This document shows, piece after piece, positions 168-10,615 of a stretch of 10,615 bases of DNA. Position 1 is the stretch's first letter; each line of letters begins with the position of its first letter. The DNA lies in NCBI GenBank assembly GCA_043821645.1, contig JBDRCO010000014.1, forward strand, positions 1-10,615, given 5' to 3'. Under the pieces are notes generated by a model. The model had not been told where the DNA came from. It saw only the letters and a list, made by a program, of their open reading frames with translations, and ran no database searches. A program made the position numbers and the translations under genes. Source of the DNA: Pseudomonadota bacterium. GTDB lineage: Bacteria; Myxococcota; JACRCW01; JAFGSX01.

Positions 168-1472
<1,305 letters not shown>

Positions 1473-1963
1473 ATGGACTGGCGCATGCCGGTGATGGATG
1501 GCCTCGAGGCCACCCGCCGCATCCGCGCCCTCGACGGTGGCCGTGAGGTCAAGATCGTGGCCCTGTCGGCCTCGGTGTTCAAGGACGAGCGCGATCAGGT
1601 GCTGGCCGCCGGGGCCGACGACTTCGAGCCCAAGCCCGTGCAGCTCGGCCGCATCTACGACTGCCTGGCGCGGCAGCTGGGTGTGCGGTACGTCGACGTC
1701 GCGGGCGCACCTGCCACGGCCTCCGCGCGCGAGCTCGACCCGGGAGCGCTGGCCGCCCTGCCCGCGACGCTGCGCACCGAGCTGGAGACGGCGCTGGTCA
1801 GCCTGGACCGCGAGAGGATTGCACGCGTGCTGACGCGCGTGACCGAGGACAACCCGGCCCTGGGCGCGGCGCTCGAGGGGCACGCGCGCCAGCTCAAGTA
1901 CACGGCCATGCTGCAAGCCCTTCAGACCTGCCATCGCGAGGTCGCGACCGACGAGGTGCCTTC

Positions 1964-1967
<4 letters not shown>
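1473..1967 (+). CDS. C-terminal fragment of the interrupted hybrid kinase (second half of REC plus helical tail); independent translation uncertain
   Basis: Begins MDWRMPVMDGLEATRRIR, with the phosphoacceptor Asp as residue 2. The ATG immediately follows the TGA. Its own stop overlaps the next start (ATGA at 1964-1967). Confidence 0.45.
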
Positions 1968-4846: not shown

Positions 4847-7120
4847 GTGAACCTCGACATGCGCACCATCCTGATCGGCGCGGCCCTGAGCAACGCCGTG
4901 TGCGTGGTGATCGCCATCGGACTGTGGCGCCAGAGCCGCCGTCGCTTTGCCGGCACGGGCTACTGGGTGCTGGACTTTGCCCTGATCACCGGCAGCCTGC
5001 TGCTGATCAGCGGCCGCGGCCAGCTGCCGGACTGGCTGTCCATCGTGGTGGCCAACGTCATGGCCTGGAGCGGGGCCCTGCTGGGCTACCAGGGTCTGCT
5101 GCACTTTGCCGGGGTGCGGCGGCGCCAGCTCCTCAACATCGCCCTCATCGCGACCCTGGCCGTGGTCCATACCCTCTTCACCTATCGCCATCCGGACCTG
5201 ACCGTACGCACCTTCAACACCGCCCTGGGCCTGTTCGTGCTGTGCGGGCAGTGCGCCTGGTTTGCCCTGCGCGGTGCCGGGCCCCGGATGCGCGCCTTGA
5301 TGCGCGGCGTGGGCCTGGTCTTCGTCGCCTACGCTTTGATCGCGCTGGGGCGCATGATTCGCGCGGTGGTCGCACCGGGGATGGCCCCCTCGTACCTGCT
5401 TCCCGACACAGTCGAGGCCGGGATCATGCTGTCCTACCAGGTGCTGCAGCTCGCCCTCGCCTTTGGCCTGGTGCTGATGGTGAACCGGCGACTGCTGGGC
5501 GAGGTGGCTGCCCAGGAGGCCAAGTTTGCCGCGGCCTTTCGCTCGTCACCCTATGCCATCACCCTGACCCGCCCTGCCGATGGCGCCCTGATCGAGGTCA
5601 ACGAGGGTTTCGTGCAGATCACGGGTTATGGGCGCGAGGACTTCCTGGGGCAGAGCAGCGTGGGCCTGGGGCTGTGGGCCGAGGAGGCGGAGCGCACCGA
5701 GGTGGTGCGCCTGCTCTCGGTGCATGGAAGCGTGCGCGATCGCGAGTGCCAGTTCGTGCACAAGTCAGGGCAGCGCATCACCGGGCTGTTCTCGGCCGAC
5801 GTGATCACCGTCGACGGCGAGCCCCTGATCCTGTCCAGCATCGCCGACATCAGCGAGCGCAAGGCCGCGGAGCAGGAGCGCGTGCGCTTGCAGGCGAGCC
5901 TGGCGCAGTCCGACCGCATGGCCAGCATGGGCATGGTCGCGGCCGGGGTGGCGCACGAGATCAACAACCCGCTGGCCTACGTGCTGTACAACCTCGAGAG
6001 CCTGGCCGACGAGCTGCCGCTGCTGGCCCGGGCCCTGCGCGAGGGCCGCCCGCTCGCGCTGAACAAGCTCGACGAGGCCGCCCAGGGTGCCCGCGAGGCC
6101 GCCCTGGGCGCGCGTCGCATCCGCGAGATCGCCGGTGCGCTGAGCAGCTTTGCCCGGGTCGAGCCCAACGCCCGCGCGTCCGTCGACGTGCGCCAGGCCA
6201 TCGTGCACGCGCTGACCCTGGTCGGCAACGAGCTGCGCTACCGGGCGCGGGTGGTCACCGAGTTTGCCGAGGTGCCGCCGGTGCTGGCCAGCGAGGGCAA
6301 GCTGGCGCAGGTGGTGCTGAACCTGCTGCTCAACGCCGCGCACGCCATGGCCGAGGGCGACGCCGAGCACAACGAGGTGGTCGTGCGCTGCCACGCCGAC
6401 GGCGATCGCGTGTGCATCGAGGTGCGCGACAGCGGCCACGGCATCACTGCCGAGAACCTGCCGCGGGTGTTCGAACCCTTCTTCTCGACCAAGGGCGTGG
6501 GCAAGGGCTCGGGCCTGGGGCTGACCATCTGCAAGAGCATCGTCGAGGGCTTTGGCGGCGAGATCCGGGTCGAGTCCCGGCCCGGCCAGGGCGCGCGCTT
6601 CGAGCTGCGCCTGCCCCGCGCACCCGATACCGTGGCGACGGTGCTGCCGGTGCAGGCGAGCCCCGGGTCCGACAGCGCCCAGGTGCCGCGCGGTCGCATC
6701 CTGGTGGTCGATGACGACGCCGGCGTGCGCAAGGTCCTGAATCGCATGCTCGGACCTACCCACGACCTGGTGCTGGTCGCGACCGGCGTCGAGGCCAGGA
6801 CCCTGTTCGAACAGGGCCAGCGCTTCGACGTCATCCTGTGCGATCTCATGATGTCGCCGCTGTCGGGGATGGAGCTGCACGGCTGGCTCGCCCGGCGCGA
6901 TCCCGAGCAGGCGAGGCGCGTGGTGTTCATCACCGGCGGCGCCTTCACCCCGGGGGCCCTGGACTACCTGCAGCAGGCCAACCTGCCCTGCGTCGAGAAG
7001 CCCTTTGACACGGACGCCCTGCGCGCCCTGATCGAGGCCAGGCTGGTCGCGTCGGCCGACGCGGGCCCTGAGTTCGAGGGAGGGCGAGACCAGGCTGGGC
7101 GCGTCCCGCCCTCGCCCTGA
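4847..7120 (+). CDS. Membrane hybrid sensor histidine kinase: about 7 TM helices, PAS, HisKA, HATPase_c, REC (757 aa)
   Basis: GTG start at 4847 with GGGAG at 4832-4836. About 7 hydrophobic segments in the first ~212 aa (LDMRT...RGQLPDWLSIVVAN motif). PAS domain (FRSSPYAITLTR...DISERK). H-box AAGVAHEINNPL, N/G1/F/G2 boxes, and REC ILVVDDD...ILCDLMM...EKPF. Confidence 0.95.
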   Translation: MNLDMRTILIGAALSNAVCVVIAIGLWRQSRRRFAGTGYWVLDFALITGSLLLISGRGQLPDWLSIVVANVMAWSGALLGYQGLLHFAGVRRRQLLNIALIATLAVVHTLFTYRHPDLTVRTFNTALGLFVLCGQCAWFALRGAGPRMRALMRGVGLVFVAYALIALGRMIRAVVAPGMAPSYLLPDTVEAGIMLSYQVLQLALAFGLVLMVNRRLLGEVAAQEAKFAAAFRSSPYAITLTRPADGALIEVNEGFVQITGYGREDFLGQSSVGLGLWAEEAERTEVVRLLSVHGSVRDRECQFVHKSGQRITGLFSADVITVDGEPLILSSIADISERKAAEQERVRLQASLAQSDRMASMGMVAAGVAHEINNPLAYVLYNLESLADELPLLARALREGRPLALNKLDEAAQGAREAALGARRIREIAGALSSFARVEPNARASVDVRQAIVHALTLVGNELRYRARVVTEFAEVPPVLASEGKLAQVVLNLLLNAAHAMAEGDAEHNEVVVRCHADGDRVCIEVRDSGHGITAENLPRVFEPFFSTKGVGKGSGLGLTICKSIVEGFGGEIRVESRPGQGARFELRLPRAPDTVATVLPVQASPGSDSAQVPRGRILVVDDDAGVRKVLNRMLGPTHDLVLVATGVEARTLFEQGQRFDVILCDLMMSPLSGMELHGWLARRDPEQARRVVFITGGAFTPGALDYLQQANLPCVEKPFDTDALRALIEARLVASADAGPEFEGGRDQAGRVPPSP
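5954..6008 (+). repeat. Paralogous H-box coding segment, copy 2 (53/55 nt identical to 3545-3599)
   Basis: Direct comparison by eye with 3545-3599 shows two mismatches. Confidence 0.85.
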
Positions 7121-7122
7121 CC

Positions 7123-7971
7123 TCAGCGGGGCGACGAACCTCCCGTCGTCCCCCCGGGGCTGTCGCGCCAGGCCCTGGCCCGCGGGCTGAGCCGTCGTGC
7201 CGTGCCCGCGTAGCGCACGCTGCCCGCCGGCAGCCGCTGCAGCACCGGATGTTGCTGCGCCGCGCCCTCGGCGGCGTGGGCCAAAAACACGTGGATCGAG
7301 ACGCCCAGGGCCAGGGTGCTGAGCTCGTCGGGAGACAGGCCCAGGTCGAGGCAGGCGGCGGCGTAGGCGCCGGCGATGTTGGGCGGCAGCCCCCGCTGCT
7401 GCTGCACCAGCGGCCACACCTGCTCGAACAGGCGCCACCAGGTGCGCTCGTGTCGTCCGCGCGCGATCAGGCAGCGGCGCAGGGCGGGCACCCGCTCGTC
7501 GAGGTCGCGAAACGGCACCCCGAAACCCTGGGGCCTTGGATTGGCCGCAAGCGCCGCCTGCACCGCGGCGTCCAGGTCGCTGGCGTCGGACGACACCTGC
7601 ACGCGCTGCTGCACGTCGAGCAAAAAGCGCGCGGCGCCGGCCGACACGTGCAGCACGCCAATAAAGGGATTGTCCAGGCTCAGGTAGCCCGCGGCGATGC
7701 CCTGCACCAGCCCGCCGTACGAGGCCACCAGGCGGGTCAGCTTGAGCGGCCAGATGCGCGGGTCGGCCACGGTCCACACCGTCATGATGTCGTCGAGCAC
7801 CCGGGCGTCCTCCAGTGGGAGGCGGCGACCGACGGCGCTCAGGGCCAGCAGGCTGGCCACGCTCTCGCGGCCCGCCAGGTCCGCGAACACCCTGTGGCCG
7901 TAGTAGCTGTGCTCGTCCCAGCCGGCGCGGGCGATGCGCGTGCGGACCACCGGCGCGTCCAGGGGACTCAT
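7123..7971 (-). CDS. Citrate synthase / citryl-CoA lyase-fold protein, divergent (282 aa; start revised from 8121 to 7971)
   Basis: ATG at 7971 overlaps the upstream TGA (ATGA, 7968-7971) and follows GGAGG. Ordered motifs resemble the CS/CCL family: RTRI..., YG..V..DLAG..S (N-terminus), ADPRIW (cf. DH), GFGVPFRDLDER (cf. GFGH...DPR), LPPNIAGA (cf. NVDG/F), AHAAE, YAGTARR (cf. YxGPxxR). Confidence 0.75.
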   Translation of the reverse strand: MSPLDAPVVRTRIARAGWDEHSYYGHRVFADLAGRESVASLLALSAVGRRLPLEDARVLDDIMTVWTVADPRIWPLKLTRLVASYGGLVQGIAAGYLSLDNPFIGVLHVSAGAARFLLDVQQRVQVSSDASDLDAAVQAALAANPRPQGFGVPFRDLDERVPALRRCLIARGRHERTWWRLFEQVWPLVQQQRGLPPNIAGAYAAACLDLGLSPDELSTLALGVSIHVFLAHAAEGAAQQHPVLQRLPAGSVRYAGTARRLSPRARAWRDSPGGTTGGSSPR

Positions 7972-8663
7972 GGCGCCACCTCCGCGAAGGCCGGCAGGTT
8001 CATCGGGTAGGACTTCATGCTGAGCGGTCGCACGGCCGTGGCCTCGGCGATGGCCACGCCCAGGCGCGACAGCACGAGCAGGGTCTCGAGCTGCTCGGGC
8101 TTGCGAAAGCCCGCCCACCACAGCACGGCCAGCAGCGCAGGAAAGCGACCGAGGTCGGCGCGCAGCAGCGGCACCTCGACACCGCGATGCTCGAGGGCCT
8201 GCCGGAGCCTGTCCACGGCCGCCCGCTCGTCGTCATCACGAGACCGGGCCGAGGTCGGTGGCTCCCCTTCGCCGCTGCCCAGCCAGGTCAGCAGCTCGGC
8301 CTGCTGCTGCACCTGATCCCGCGCCTGCTCGGCCAGACCCATTGCTGCGATACCGCTCAGGGCGCTGTGCTGCACGCCGATGACGCGCCCGAGGCGCGCC
8401 GCGTGCACGGGCGCCTCGGCCACCGAGCAGGCCGCGGCGAAGATCAAGGCCACCTCCACCGCCCGCCGCCTGTCCTCGTCGAGCAGCTCGCCGCCCAGGG
8501 CCAGCAGCAGCACCTCGAGCAGGCCATAGTGGCAGGCCAGGTCGTCCTCGACGTCGTAGCCGCGGATGGCCGGCGTGGGCTGGCTGTCGACGACGCGCGC
8601 CTGCAGCTGCTCGGGCCAGGCCACGGCATCCAGGGGGCTGGCGGCATCCTGGGGATCGCTCAT
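7968..8663 (-). CDS. Uncharacterised protein with a citrate synthase / citryl-CoA lyase-like N-terminal region (231 aa)
   Basis: Starts 2 nt after the ThDP gene stop, with AAGGA upstream, and its stop overlaps the next start. IRGYDVEDDLACHYGLLEVLLLALGGEL resembles the CS/CCL N-terminal xRGYxxxDL...EVxxLLxxGELP pattern. Also APVHAARL and SRLGVAIAEA. The fold assignment is by motif recognition only. Confidence 0.7.
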   Translation of the reverse strand: MSDPQDAASPLDAVAWPEQLQARVVDSQPTPAIRGYDVEDDLACHYGLLEVLLLALGGELLDEDRRRAVEVALIFAAACSVAEAPVHAARLGRVIGVQHSALSGIAAMGLAEQARDQVQQQAELLTWLGSGEGEPPTSARSRDDDERAAVDRLRQALEHRGVEVPLLRADLGRFPALLAVLWWAGFRKPEQLETLLVLSRLGVAIAEATAVRPLSMKSYPMNLPAFAEVAP

Positions 8664-8665
8664 GC

Positions 8666-10423
8666 TCAGTCCTTTTCAAAGCCCGCGATGGAGCGCGCGC
8701 GGGCGCCGATGGGAGGGGGGATGTTGCCGTCGACGCGAACCTCGATCAGGGCCGGCGCGTCCAGGGCCAGCGCCTCGGCCAGCACGGCCTGGATCTGGTC
8801 CGGCGCGTCCACCACCCAGGCCTGCACGCCCATGGCCCTGGCCATGCTGGCCACCTCGAGGGGGCGCCGGTAGCGCGCGCACTGCATGGGCTGGCGGCCG
8901 CCCACCAGCTGGCTGCCGTGCCAGATGATGCCGTGCATGTTGTTGTTCTCGACGATCCACAGCACCGGCACCTGGTGCTCGACCGCGGTGAGCAGCTCCA
9001 TGCCGTGCATGGTGAAGCAGGCGTCGCCGACGATGGCGACGACGGGGCGCTCGGGCAGGGCCAGCTTGGCGCCCACCGGGGCGGCGGTGCCGTGGCCCAT
9101 GGAGGCGAAGCCGAAGTTGATGACGAAGCGCTGGCCGCGGCGCAGCACCAGGTCGTGCAGGTTGAAGAACATGTGGCCGCCGATGTCGCTGAACAGCAGC
9201 ACGTCGTCGGGCAGGGCCTGCAGCAGGTCGACGCGCCAGCGCTGCGGGGTCAGCGGGCGGGCGCTGGAAACGCGCAGCGCGGGCTGGTCGAAGCGCGCGT
9301 GGCTGCGATCCAGGGGTGGCGCCCCGGGCCACAGCGAGCGCGGCCGGGCGCCGTCGCGCAGGCTGCGGTGCAGGTGGTAGACCAGCTCGACCAGGATGGT
9401 CTGGGCATCGCCCACCAGGGCCACGTCGACGGGGTAGTTGCGGCCGATGCGGTGCGGATCGACGTCGAGCTGCATGAGGGCGCGGCTCGGCCTCAGCGCC
9501 GGCGACCAGCCCAGGGTGGTGGGCTCGTTGAGCGAGGCGCCCACCGTGAGCAGCACGTCGCAGGCGCCACCCAGCACGGCATCCGAGGCGGCGCGGTGGC
9601 CGGCGTAGCCCAGCACGCCCAGGGACAGCGGGTGGTCCTCGGCGAACACGCCCTTGGCCGCGGGCGTCGACGCCACGCGCGCGGGCAGCAGCTCGGCCAG
9701 GGCCGCCAGGTGCTCCTCGGCGCCGGCGCGCAGCACGCCCGAGCCCGCCAGCAGCAGCGGGTGCTCGGCCTGCAACAAGAGCGTTGCGGCCTGCTGCACG
9801 GCCTGGCGATCGAAGCCGCGGCTGGGCGGTCGGTAGGTGGCGGGGTCGAACCAGTCCTCGTCCAGCGGTTGCTCCCACAGGTCCACCGGGATGTTCAGGT
9901 GCACCGGCCCGGGGCGACCGCTCAGGGCCTGGCGCAGCGCGCGGCGCAGGTGGTGGGCCAGGGCCTGGGGCGAGGTCACCATGGTCGAGTACTTGGTCAC
10001 CGGCCTGAACATCTCGACGATGTCCACGTCCTCGCGCGGGGTCTCCTGGGCCGCACCGCGCCCCTGCGACAGCAGCGCGGCCTGCCCGGTGACGACGAGC
10101 ATGGGTACGCCGTCGGCGCAGGCGCAGGCCACGCCGGTGAGCAGGTTGGTGGAGCCCGGCCCCGAGGTGCCCGCGCACACCGCCAGGCGCCGGCTGACCC
10201 GGGCAAAGCCGTCGGCCATGAAGGCCGCCGCGCCCTCGTGCTTGGCCACCACCTGGCGCAGCTCGGGGTCCTGCTCCACCGCCTCGAAGACGTGGTGCAG
10301 CAGGCCGCCGGGGATGCCGAACACCACGGACGCGCCCTCGGCTTTGAGATAGCGCAGGAACACGTCGACCACCCGGCTGCCGCTGCTGCTGCGTGCGCTG
10401 CCGGCCATGTCCTCGAGTTGCAT
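8666..10423 (-). CDS. Thiamine diphosphate-dependent enzyme, acetolactate synthase-like superfamily (PYR, central and PP domains; 585 aa)
   Basis: VFGIPGG, KHEGAAAFMADGFAR (catalytic Glu), TSGPGSTN, GRPGPVHLNIPVD, central domain GSGV...DVDPHRIGRNYPVDVALVGDA, SDIG, ASMG, and ThDP/Mg motif GDACF-x-ENN. GGAG lies 5 nt before the ATG at 10423. Confidence 0.93.
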   Translation of the reverse strand: MQLEDMAGSARSSSGSRVVDVFLRYLKAEGASVVFGIPGGLLHHVFEAVEQDPELRQVVAKHEGAAAFMADGFARVSRRLAVCAGTSGPGSTNLLTGVACACADGVPMLVVTGQAALLSQGRGAAQETPREDVDIVEMFRPVTKYSTMVTSPQALAHHLRRALRQALSGRPGPVHLNIPVDLWEQPLDEDWFDPATYRPPSRGFDRQAVQQAATLLLQAEHPLLLAGSGVLRAGAEEHLAALAELLPARVASTPAAKGVFAEDHPLSLGVLGYAGHRAASDAVLGGACDVLLTVGASLNEPTTLGWSPALRPSRALMQLDVDPHRIGRNYPVDVALVGDAQTILVELVYHLHRSLRDGARPRSLWPGAPPLDRSHARFDQPALRVSSARPLTPQRWRVDLLQALPDDVLLFSDIGGHMFFNLHDLVLRRGQRFVINFGFASMGHGTAAPVGAKLALPERPVVAIVGDACFTMHGMELLTAVEHQVPVLWIVENNNMHGIIWHGSQLVGGRQPMQCARYRRPLEVASMARAMGVQAWVVDAPDQIQAVLAEALALDAPALIEVRVDGNIPPPIGARARSIAGFEKD

Positions 10424-10475
10424 GCGGACTCCACGCGCTGCGGGCGCAGCGCCCCGTCGCGGCGCAGGGGCGGAC

Positions 10476-10615
10476 TCAGTCCCCGCTGGCCACGCGGCGT
10501 ATGGTGACCACGCGCGCCAGCAGCGCGTCGTCGGTCTCGATGGGCCGTGGTGCGGCCTCGGCCTCCTGTTGCACCGGGGCCTCGCGGGGCAGGTAGATCC
10601 AGAAGGTGGTGCCCT
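10476..10615 (-). CDS. 3' end of a sensor histidine kinase (HATPase_c C-terminus; partial, 5' end outside window; not in the supplied ORF track)
   Basis: Manual reverse-strand translation from 10613: GTTFWIYLPREAPVQQEAEAAPRPIETDDALLARVVTIRRVASGD, TGA at 10478-10476. GTTFxIYLP is the typical last strand of a kinase ATPase domain. Confidence 0.8.
   Translation of the reverse strand, partial: GTTFWIYLPREAPVQQEAEAAPRPIETDDALLARVVTIRRVASGD

Follow-up and report, generated by a model that had tools for sequence, protein, structure and literature searches.

A translationally coupled operon of a sensor kinase, a BbmA-like thiamine diphosphate enzyme and two citryl-CoA-lyase-fold proteins in Myxococcota: a possible small-molecule system tied to signaling

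Introduction

The acyloin-forming thiamine diphosphate (ThDP)-dependent carboligases include ScyA, which acts in the scytonemin pathway and has ScyB and ScyC as its known partners, as well as NzsH and CybE. The alpha-hydroxyketones CAI-1 and LAI-1 belong to the class of compounds expected as products of a ThDP carboligase. In the CqsA/CqsS and RpfF/RpfC/RpfG systems, an enzyme drawn from a metabolic superfamily is encoded beside a dedicated membrane-anchored sensor kinase; CqsA depends on pyridoxal phosphate and RpfF is a crotonase, so that the families of both enzymes are unrelated to the ThDP enzyme considered here. Citrate synthase (CS) and citryl-CoA lyase (CCL), for their part, form homo-oligomers, in which one subunit is embraced by the C-terminal arm of the other. 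Here we describe a locus in a 10,615-nt stretch of DNA (the window, the whole of contig JBDRCO010000014.1 of assembly GCA_043821645.1, which GTDB places in the Myxococcota) where a ThDP enzyme gene and two genes for CCL-fold proteins, CCLa and CCLb, follow a sensor histidine kinase gene. The window has a G+C content of 72% and comes from a genome of 7.07 Mb in 140 contigs that is 94.7% complete.

The initial annotation of the window had described the ThDP enzyme and the two small proteins as a minimal three-gene biosynthetic cassette in which the CS-fold pair condenses, cyclizes or channels the product of the ThDP enzyme. Its account of a coupled unit, of the CS/CCL fold and of a ThDP enzyme other than acetohydroxyacid synthase (AHAS) stands, while the limit to three genes does not and the condensing role is not supported. 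A literature search for the combination of citryl-CoA lyase- or citrate synthase-like genes with a ThDP enzyme in one cluster found none among the papers listed, which accords with the initial annotation, to whose author no characterized pathway of this kind was known. The components belong to known superfamilies, and together they look like an undescribed small-molecule system tied to signaling.

Results and Discussion

An operon of four genes

The list of open reading frames (ORFs) and their translations places three genes in the same orientation on the minus strand of the window. The first encodes a 585-aa ThDP-dependent enzyme (P0001; 8666..10423, minus strand) of the BbmA/CsmA-like branch of the AHAS-like superfamily. 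It is followed by the gene for CCLa (P0002, 231 aa; 7968..8663, minus strand), which by model and profile is a divergent CCL-fold protein and belongs to no Pfam family, and by the gene for CCLb (P0004, 282 aa; 7123..7971, minus strand), assigned on the same grounds as a CCL-fold protein that lacks the canonical triad. The ThDP stop codon and the CCLa start codon are separated by 2 nt (8664..8665, minus strand, reading TGA-gc-ATG) and the stop and start codons of CCLa and CCLb overlap as ATGA (7968..7971, minus strand). Purine-rich motifs of the Shine-Dalgarno type are present 7-12 nt 5' of each ATG: GGAG for the start at 10423, AAGGA for 8663 and GGAGG for 7971. Co-orientation, gap, overlap and ribosome-binding motifs had all been reported in the initial annotation and are confirmed in the sequence at these positions. 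The longest ORF for CCLb begins at a GTG at 8121; homologues nevertheless align from the ATG at 7971, which supports the latter as the start. A scan of positions 6900-10615 for promoters and terminators returned no promoter-like site and a single terminator-like one, which lies within CCLb; shuffled sequences gave no fewer, and the scan is uninformative at 72% G+C.

The unit does not begin with the ThDP gene. Clustering of neighboring genes identified a histidine kinase directly upstream of it, and the end of the window carries the 3' end of such a gene (last 46 codons and stop; 10475..10615, minus strand), cut at the contig end, whose product shares the C-terminal consensus of the upstream kinases in related loci. 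The last ~141 bases of a second contig, C100 (C100:17397-17537), are identical to this end of the window (10475..10615); therefore, the two contigs abut and the kinase gene was split by an assembly break. Its ORF on C100 (L045:10855-12537) encodes 560 aa, carries an N-terminal sensor domain, matches NCBIfam kinase families and stops 50 nt short of the ThDP start codon. Thus, the sensor histidine kinase gene is the first gene of the unit, across the contig break, and the cassette is not limited to three genes as first described.

To place the locus among its relatives, we used 40 loci from a motif-seeded scan of species-representative genomes (one genome per species), with features scored by tblastn. 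Nearly all are labelled Myxococcota (Polyangiaceae, Nannocystaceae, Bradymonadales and unclassified Myxococcales); three of the metagenome-assembled genomes (MAGs) carry the labels Enterobacterales or Pseudomonadota. A CCLa homologue is directly upstream of CCLb in 40/40 loci, one of them cut by a contig end. A ThDP gene accompanies the pair in 35/40 loci, directly upstream in 33 and within ~2.5 kb in 2 (L004 and L011). The enzyme is 52-70% identical to P0001 in 25 loci (24 directly upstream; L004 on the opposite strand) and only ~30% identical in 10 (9 directly upstream; L011 after a 1.2-kb gap), and the remaining 5 loci, one of which is cut at a contig edge, have no ThDP gene. This arrangement is far beyond chance and bears out the earlier proposal that the trio is one coupled unit conserved elsewhere. 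The kinase stop codon overlaps the ThDP start codon by 4 nt (ATGA or GTGA) in 12/15 called junctions, and a 4-nt overlap joins the ThDP and CCLa genes in 8/13. Genes in these loci came from a crude in-house caller based on ORFs and third-position G+C (GC3) that missed some genes, so the junction counts refer to called junctions only; wherever possible, we preferred counts from tblastn and hidden Markov models (HMMs). The four genes, for the sensor histidine kinase, the BbmA-like ThDP carboligase, CCLa and CCLb, thus form a translationally coupled operon that is sporadic in Myxococcota. The family occurs in 16/401 genomes sampled within the phylum, this one included. Homologues of CCLb number at least 169 (39-51% identity), nearly all of them metagenomic, and the few with names are from Polyangiaceae or 'Deltaproteobacteria'.

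The ThDP enzyme that is only ~30% identical to P0001 belongs to a different branch. Two representatives that we tested are ScyA-related, with 704 and 590 bits on NF035927 (cut-off 1000). The window enzyme, by contrast, is not ScyA-like, and ScyA models are absent from its best 25 NCBIfam matches. In a tree of CCLb (midpoint root, 41 rows, none dropped), one well-supported clade contains 7 ScyA-type and 3 ThDP-less loci, and ScyA-type loci also occur at two other places. This scatter indicates that the pair changed its ThDP partner at least twice. Because it is accompanied by P0001-type enzymes in some loci and by ScyA-related enzymes in others, the CCL pair appears to work with acyloin-type ThDP enzymes of two branches. 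Among the called genes of the ScyA-type loci, we found no further shared cluster or Pfam family beyond those reported here.

A separate observation concerns a conserved protein of ~190 aa that accompanies the CCL pair in L001 (L001:6956-7534), L008, L019, L007, L009, L011, L014 and L023, that is, in 8/15 loci with a ScyA-type or no ThDP enzyme and in 0/25 loci of the window type. It has no Pfam or NCBIfam match. We considered it as a relative of the kinase sensor domain described below, to which it is not related.

The ThDP enzyme is not an acetohydroxyacid synthase

P0001 carries the three TPP_enzyme domains (PF02776, PF00205 and PF02775 in Pfam) and retains the KHEGAA segment, with the cofactor-activating Glu (HE), and the GDACF...ENNN ThDP motif. 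These are features of the superfamily and are not specific to AHAS. In sequence searches of the PDB, the closest solved structures were BbmA (PDB 8x3x, 8x3y and 8xod; E 4e-134, 451 bits) and CsmA (8x3z; E 6.8e-99, 335 bits), whose full-length similarity to P0001 is far above that of any AHAS (E. coli AHAS I, E 4e-70). Homologues of P0001 are numerous (2930 at E <= 1e-60 among the 8000 candidates scored) and the best 120 are 66-72% identical to it; the only names they bear are 'acetolactate synthase large subunit' and 'TPP-binding protein'. A literature search found no publication on BbmA or CsmA, and a word search of a 2025 review (PMC12247030) returned no mention of either. Because the function of BbmA and CsmA was not retrieved, we infer the chemistry of P0001 from its superfamily only.

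One alternative would make P0001 the AHAS of this organism, with the two small proteins as unusual regulatory subunits. Its best-scoring NCBIfam models are indeed those of the AHAS large subunit, and the genome has no other AHAS-like gene above a cut-off, the only other ThDP paralogues being IolD and a PRK05858/2-hydroxyacyl-CoA-lyase-like protein (below cut-off). Yet P0001 falls under every NCBIfam cut-off, those of all AHAS models included; on TIGR00118 (AHAS large subunit) it scores 365.2 bits against a cut-off of 538.35. Furthermore, we found no ilvC, ilvD or ilvN at family cut-off in the 94.7%-complete genome, an absence that in an incomplete assembly is not proof; the only match at E <= 0.001 was for ilvC, at 20.5 bits against a cut-off of 226.15. 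The same searches were positive in 14 (ilvC), 14 (ilvD) and 13 (ilvN) of 14 control genomes. It is, therefore, very unlikely that P0001 serves branched-chain amino-acid synthesis. The occurrence of the unit in only 16 of the 401 phylum genomes also speaks against an AHAS function, and we consider this explanation close to refuted. By its sequence, P0001 is not an AHAS and not an ilvB/ilvI orthologue, which upholds the earlier description of a non-AHAS ThDP enzyme. As ilvC, ilvD and ilvN were not detected, this organism might depend on an external supply of branched-chain amino acids.

We extended the comparison to 80 metagenome loci collected with P0252, a representative that scores 552 bits to BbmA and is thus its nearer relative. 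HMMs matched CCLb in 18, CCLa in 18 and the kinase sensor domain in 17 of these loci, mostly within the same orthologous group. The loci most like P0252 (47-57% identity) gave no HMM match to the CCL pair or the sensor domain. Representatives at 50% identity around BbmA, from MAGs (Ozemobacteraceae, Elusimicrobiota), bear only the name 'thiamine pyrophosphate-binding protein'. A Pfam check of the neighbors of P0252-like genes covered two of the 80 loci, L049 and L062. In L062 (L062:2052-6725), the ThDP gene is directly behind a partner-switching set composed of a dCache-HAMP-SpoIIE phosphatase, an RsbW-like HATPase_c_2 kinase and a STAS protein. In L049 (L049:2318-7729), it lies between genes for a hybrid receiver-kinase, an HTH-receiver response regulator and an O-methyltransferase. 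These two loci of 80 hint at a wider link between BbmA-like ThDP genes and signaling.

Three further loci (L094:2374-6716, L095:1848-6698 and L101:3216-6695) hold distant CCLa/CCLb-like pairs (22-25% identity to CCLb) with an adjoining BbmA-like ThDP gene, on contigs of 54-60% G+C and with TonB-dependent receptors beside the pair. The position of these pairs beside BbmA-like genes indicates that the association of ThDP enzyme and CCL pair is wider than the main group. They keep the DxRIW / G..P...DER / N / D / Y.G..R signature of CCLb, and the His is again absent.

Such neighbors could suggest a catabolic module in which the ThDP enzyme is a lyase (cf. 2-hydroxyacyl-CoA lyase, benzaldehyde lyase or cyclohexane-1,2-dione hydrolase), the fragment, an acyl-CoA or a carboxylate, is taken over by the CCL pair and the kinase switches on the operon when substrate is present. 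Besides the TonB-dependent receptors that adjoin the distant pairs, the ThDP-less pairs in L001, L008 and L019 are beside genes for a major facilitator superfamily (MFS) transporter, a reductase like tartronate-semialdehyde reductase or 3-hydroxyisobutyrate dehydrogenase (HIBADH), a FadB-like enzyme and a thiolase. The matches of P0001 to lyase and hydrolase members in the PDB are, however, far weaker (E 7e-51 and below, including 2-hydroxyacyl-CoA lyase, against 4e-134 for BbmA) and no catabolic partners are conserved in the 25 P0001-type loci. A catabolic function is distinctly improbable on this evidence.

CCLa and CCLb share the citryl-CoA lyase fold and replace its catalytic residues

Neither small protein matched a Pfam family, and PDB searches with the single sequences of CCLa or CCLb gave chance-level matches only. 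On the NCBIfam citryl-CoA lyase model (NF004868), CCLb scored 53.7 bits against a cut-off of 193, with its other matches also far below cut-off, and the single NCBIfam match of CCLa reached 14.9 bits against 261 (E 0.01). Family profiles, on the other hand, reached the citryl-CoA lyase of Hydrogenobacter thermophilus (6hxp) and citrate synthases in the PDB by sequence, with E 1.2e-11 for CCLb and 4.8e-5 for CCLa. AlphaFold models built on alignments of 26 homologues for CCLb and 19 for CCLa (model confidence, pLDDT, 89 and 86, respectively) had 6hxp as their best structural match, ahead of the CCL modules of ATP-citrate lyases; citrate and methylcitrate synthases ranked next. CCLb matched 6hxp with a Foldseek E of 1.6e-9 and a VIA Z of 22.6 (root-mean-square deviation (rmsd) 5.7, 252 of 256 residues aligned) and CCLa with a Foldseek E of 1.1e-5 and a VIA Z of 13.9 (rmsd 4.8, 200 residues aligned). 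The two families are also homologous to each other across their N-terminal 92 columns (hhalign 80.6%, E 1.3e-5). In the models, then, both small proteins have the CCL/CS fold, as the initial annotation had claimed and as its proposed Foldseek check now indicates, with 6hxp as the top match.

The fold is common to 6hxp, the CCL module of ATP-citrate lyase and CCLb over nearly the whole chain, whereas the catalytic His/His/Asp residues are replaced in CCLb. The residue assignments come from sequence-profile alignment rather than from superposed coordinates. In the profile alignment of the CCLb family to 6hxp, IDHGIAP becomes ADPRIWP, GYGHRYYKDFDPR becomes GFGVPFR..DER (the segment GYGHRYY corresponding to GFGVPFR) and LNVDGA becomes PNI-a-a. 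The triad positions, which we take to be those of pig CS H274, H320 and D375, the Asp also corresponding to D1026 of ATP-citrate lyase (ACLY), are thus occupied by Pro/Arg, Val and a small residue. CCLb retains the Arg of DPR/DER and the C-terminal Y.G..PR segment. In CCLa, Val takes the place of the first His, and the alignment shows no GxGH motif. With these residues replaced, a Claisen condensation of the citrate synthase type by the CCL pair is unlikely, and the proposal that the CS-fold pair condenses the product loses its support.

The replaced segments are at the same time the most conserved parts of CCLb. Residues R72, W74, P75, K77, R80, R155, D158, E159, R160, N198, D209, Y254, G256 and R260 are invariant in 26 sequences, and the most conserved segments (DPRIW.LK..R, GFGVPFR..DER, PN, D209 and Y.G..PR) align with active-site segments of 6hxp and are kept in distant homologues outside the main group. 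This coincidence suggests that the pocket is under selection for a role other than that of a citrate synthase.

Where CCL (6hxp) is a single chain, the locus encodes two diverged paralogues, for which the complex models predict a heterodimer. The interface score ipSAE was 0.68 (0.63, 0.71 and 0.68 in separate runs) and that of the best control 0.00, although likeness to solved CS/CCL dimers may explain the difference. The mark we used for ipSAE is reached by 116/157 solved complexes and by 2/215 mismatched pairs, a calibration that is only rough because our own alignments were used. The runs share at least 90% of their contacts, with a partner pLDDT of at least 90, and the predicted interface links the tail of CCLb (254-265) with G35, Y36, D41 and L42 of CCLa, all of which are invariant.

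A pair that has lost its triad and kept its pocket could also belong to a metabolite-sensing complex with no product of its own, in which CCLa and CCLb, and perhaps the ThDP enzyme, are ligand-binding co-sensors or regulatory subunits that inform the kinase of a metabolite (a 2-oxoacid, an acyl-CoA or a citrate-like compound). Two metagenomic CCLb homologues of ~400 aa (P0096 and P0121) bear a C-terminal response-regulator receiver domain, as such a role might lead one to expect. The co-translation of the operon with the kinase gene and the signaling genes beside BbmA-like ThDP genes in L062 and L049 (2 of 80 loci examined) point in the same direction. A purely sensory ThDP protein is harder to reconcile with the intact cofactor-activating Glu and ThDP motif of P0001 and with a conservation of 52-70% identity, as expected of an active enzyme; the kinase, moreover, has a conserved ligand-type domain of its own. 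We therefore regard a sensing complex without a product as rather unlikely.

A sensor kinase coupled to the ThDP gene

HisKA and HATPase_c were matched in Pfam searches of the upstream genes of three related loci (L002, L006 and L010). The kinases share a layout of a conserved N-terminal domain of ~190 residues, one or two hydrophobic segments, HisKA and HATPase_c. Invariant residues of the N-terminal domain include W51, R132, C144, R147, P155, G159, P161, G174, D175 and C178, and the domain ends in a C...GD..CEY..W motif. The domain is present in 22/40 loci: in 21/25 of P0001 type, two more of which are cut by contig ends, and in L031, where it is downstream of the CCL pair. It is found in 0/10 ScyA-type loci and once in the genome under study, on contig C100 (L045:10855-11436). 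Searches identified no PDB relative by profile, no family above threshold and no Atlas match of 0.9 or above. Below threshold, members of the family matched Arabinose_bd (7/13, best E 1.5e-4), V4R (3/13, best E 0.022) and HNOB (1/13). Such matches suggest that it may be a cytoplasmic small-ligand domain of the H-NOX/V4R kind.

The close association of kinase and ThDP gene bears on whether the locus is a secondary-metabolite cassette, in which a specialized metabolite is the joint product of ThDP enzyme and CS-fold pair and the kinase is only a transcriptional regulator. Both ThDP partner types are in branches with acyloin-forming natural-product enzymes (BbmA/CsmA-like and ScyA-related), the family is sporadic within its phylum and one BbmA-like relative (L049) is beside an O-methyltransferase gene, all of which would suit a biosynthetic cluster. 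However, the surroundings of the unit show no other conserved genes for tailoring, transport or resistance. The kinase, whose gene is translationally coupled to that of the enzyme in most called junctions, also lacks a conserved cognate DNA-binding response regulator next to it. The ThDP orthologues are also unusually uniform for such a cassette, as the identities of the best 120 indicate, and the CCL pair lacks the condensing residues. Taken together, these features make a cassette for a specialized metabolite a minority explanation that we think is probably wrong.

The coupling has a parallel in CqsA/CqsS and RpfF/RpfC/RpfG, which likewise place a metabolic-superfamily enzyme beside a dedicated membrane-anchored sensor kinase, as 21/25 P0001-type loci and this genome do. 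A receiver-EAL gene, for a cyclic di-GMP (c-di-GMP) phosphodiesterase, adjoins the unit in 3/40 loci and recalls RpfG. The architecture of the sensors differs: CqsS is a polytopic membrane sensor, whereas the sensor domain is predicted here to be cytoplasmic and N-terminal. These parallels would fit a self-contained chemical signaling system of Myxococcota in which the ThDP carboligase and a re-tooled CCL heterodimer make an acyloin-type signal from 2-oxoacids, the H-NOX/V4R-like domain of the kinase detects it and c-di-GMP is the output in some lineages. Such a system would be a ThDP-based counterpart, in its logic, of CqsA/CqsS and RpfF/RpfC/RpfG. We offer it as a speculative possibility that the present evidence leaves improbable.

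A proposed role for the operon

The explanation that we favor, tentatively and at somewhat less than even chances, is that the operon may encode an enzyme system for a 2-oxoacid-derived small molecule that is coupled to a dedicated kinase. The ThDP enzyme would act on a 2-oxoacid, first by decarboxylation and then by joining the resulting acyl anion to a second carbonyl; the product would be an alpha-hydroxy-beta-keto acid or an acyloin. CCLa and CCLb would form a heterodimer with one strongly conserved, Arg/Lys-rich pocket where CCL binds citrate or citryl-CoA. This pocket could bind the product, a carboxylated tertiary alcohol (a citrate-like alpha-hydroxy acid), or an acyl-CoA partner, and the heterodimer would convert or hold its ligand by chemistry other than a Claisen reaction of the citrate synthase type. 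The co-translated kinase, with its H-NOX/V4R-like domain and hydrophobic segments, would sense the product or substrate or control the enzymes; the receiver-fused CCLb homologues and the receiver-EAL genes next to some units are in keeping with such a tie. The label of biosynthetic unit that the locus was given at first is likewise one that we infer.

Several observations weigh against this proposal. The chemistry assigned to the ThDP enzyme is drawn from its superfamily only, and the CCL pair, its triad gone, could be non-catalytic. The predicted heterodimer may owe its passing score to the likeness of the models to solved CS/CCL homodimers. We found no fused forms of CCLb longer than 495 aa, which is weak evidence. 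The unit is not always complete: the CCL pair occurs without a ThDP gene in L001, L008 and L019, beside the MFS, HIBADH-like, FadB-like and thiolase genes mentioned above, and L031 has the pair and a kinase but no ThDP gene, while L032 breaks off at the edge of its contig. The sensor domain is missing from both loci of Bradymonadales (L028 and L036). Finally, the assignment of that domain is based on sub-threshold matches, and the junction counts share the limits of the gene caller.

Neighboring genes in the window

The rest of the window is occupied by hybrid histidine kinases on the plus strand. One of these genes (4847..7120, plus strand) converges on CCLb, whose stop is at 7123, and the two stop codons are 2 nt apart, which leaves no room for a terminator between them. 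In another (168..1967, plus strand), an in-frame TGA at 1470-1472 interrupts the receiver domain one residue before the phospho-acceptor motif (..HLI-TGA-MDWRMPVMDG), and Pfam splits the domain over the two ORFs around it (profile positions 1-46 and 48-108). This TGA may have arisen by nonsense mutation or through faulty assembly, or it may be read through. Genes for Ser/Thr kinases also neighbor the unit; as they are very numerous in this genome, we dropped them as specific partners.

Conclusions

Should the literature on BbmA and CsmA already cover the unit, the gain would be one of annotation, for several hundred genes in myxobacterial MAGs that are now called 'hypothetical' or 'acetolactate synthase'. 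If the proposed role is correct, CCLa and CCLb would represent a new and well-populated pair of CS-fold families without the classic triad and with a conserved pocket, a case of the re-use of a fold. Acyloin-forming ThDP enzymes of two branches would have recruited the same accessory heterodimer, a sign that a general step, so far undescribed, follows or accompanies ThDP carboligation. And the tie, by a stop/start overlap, of such an enzyme system to a dedicated sensor kinase would make a role in small-molecule signaling or metabolite sensing directly testable with four genes.

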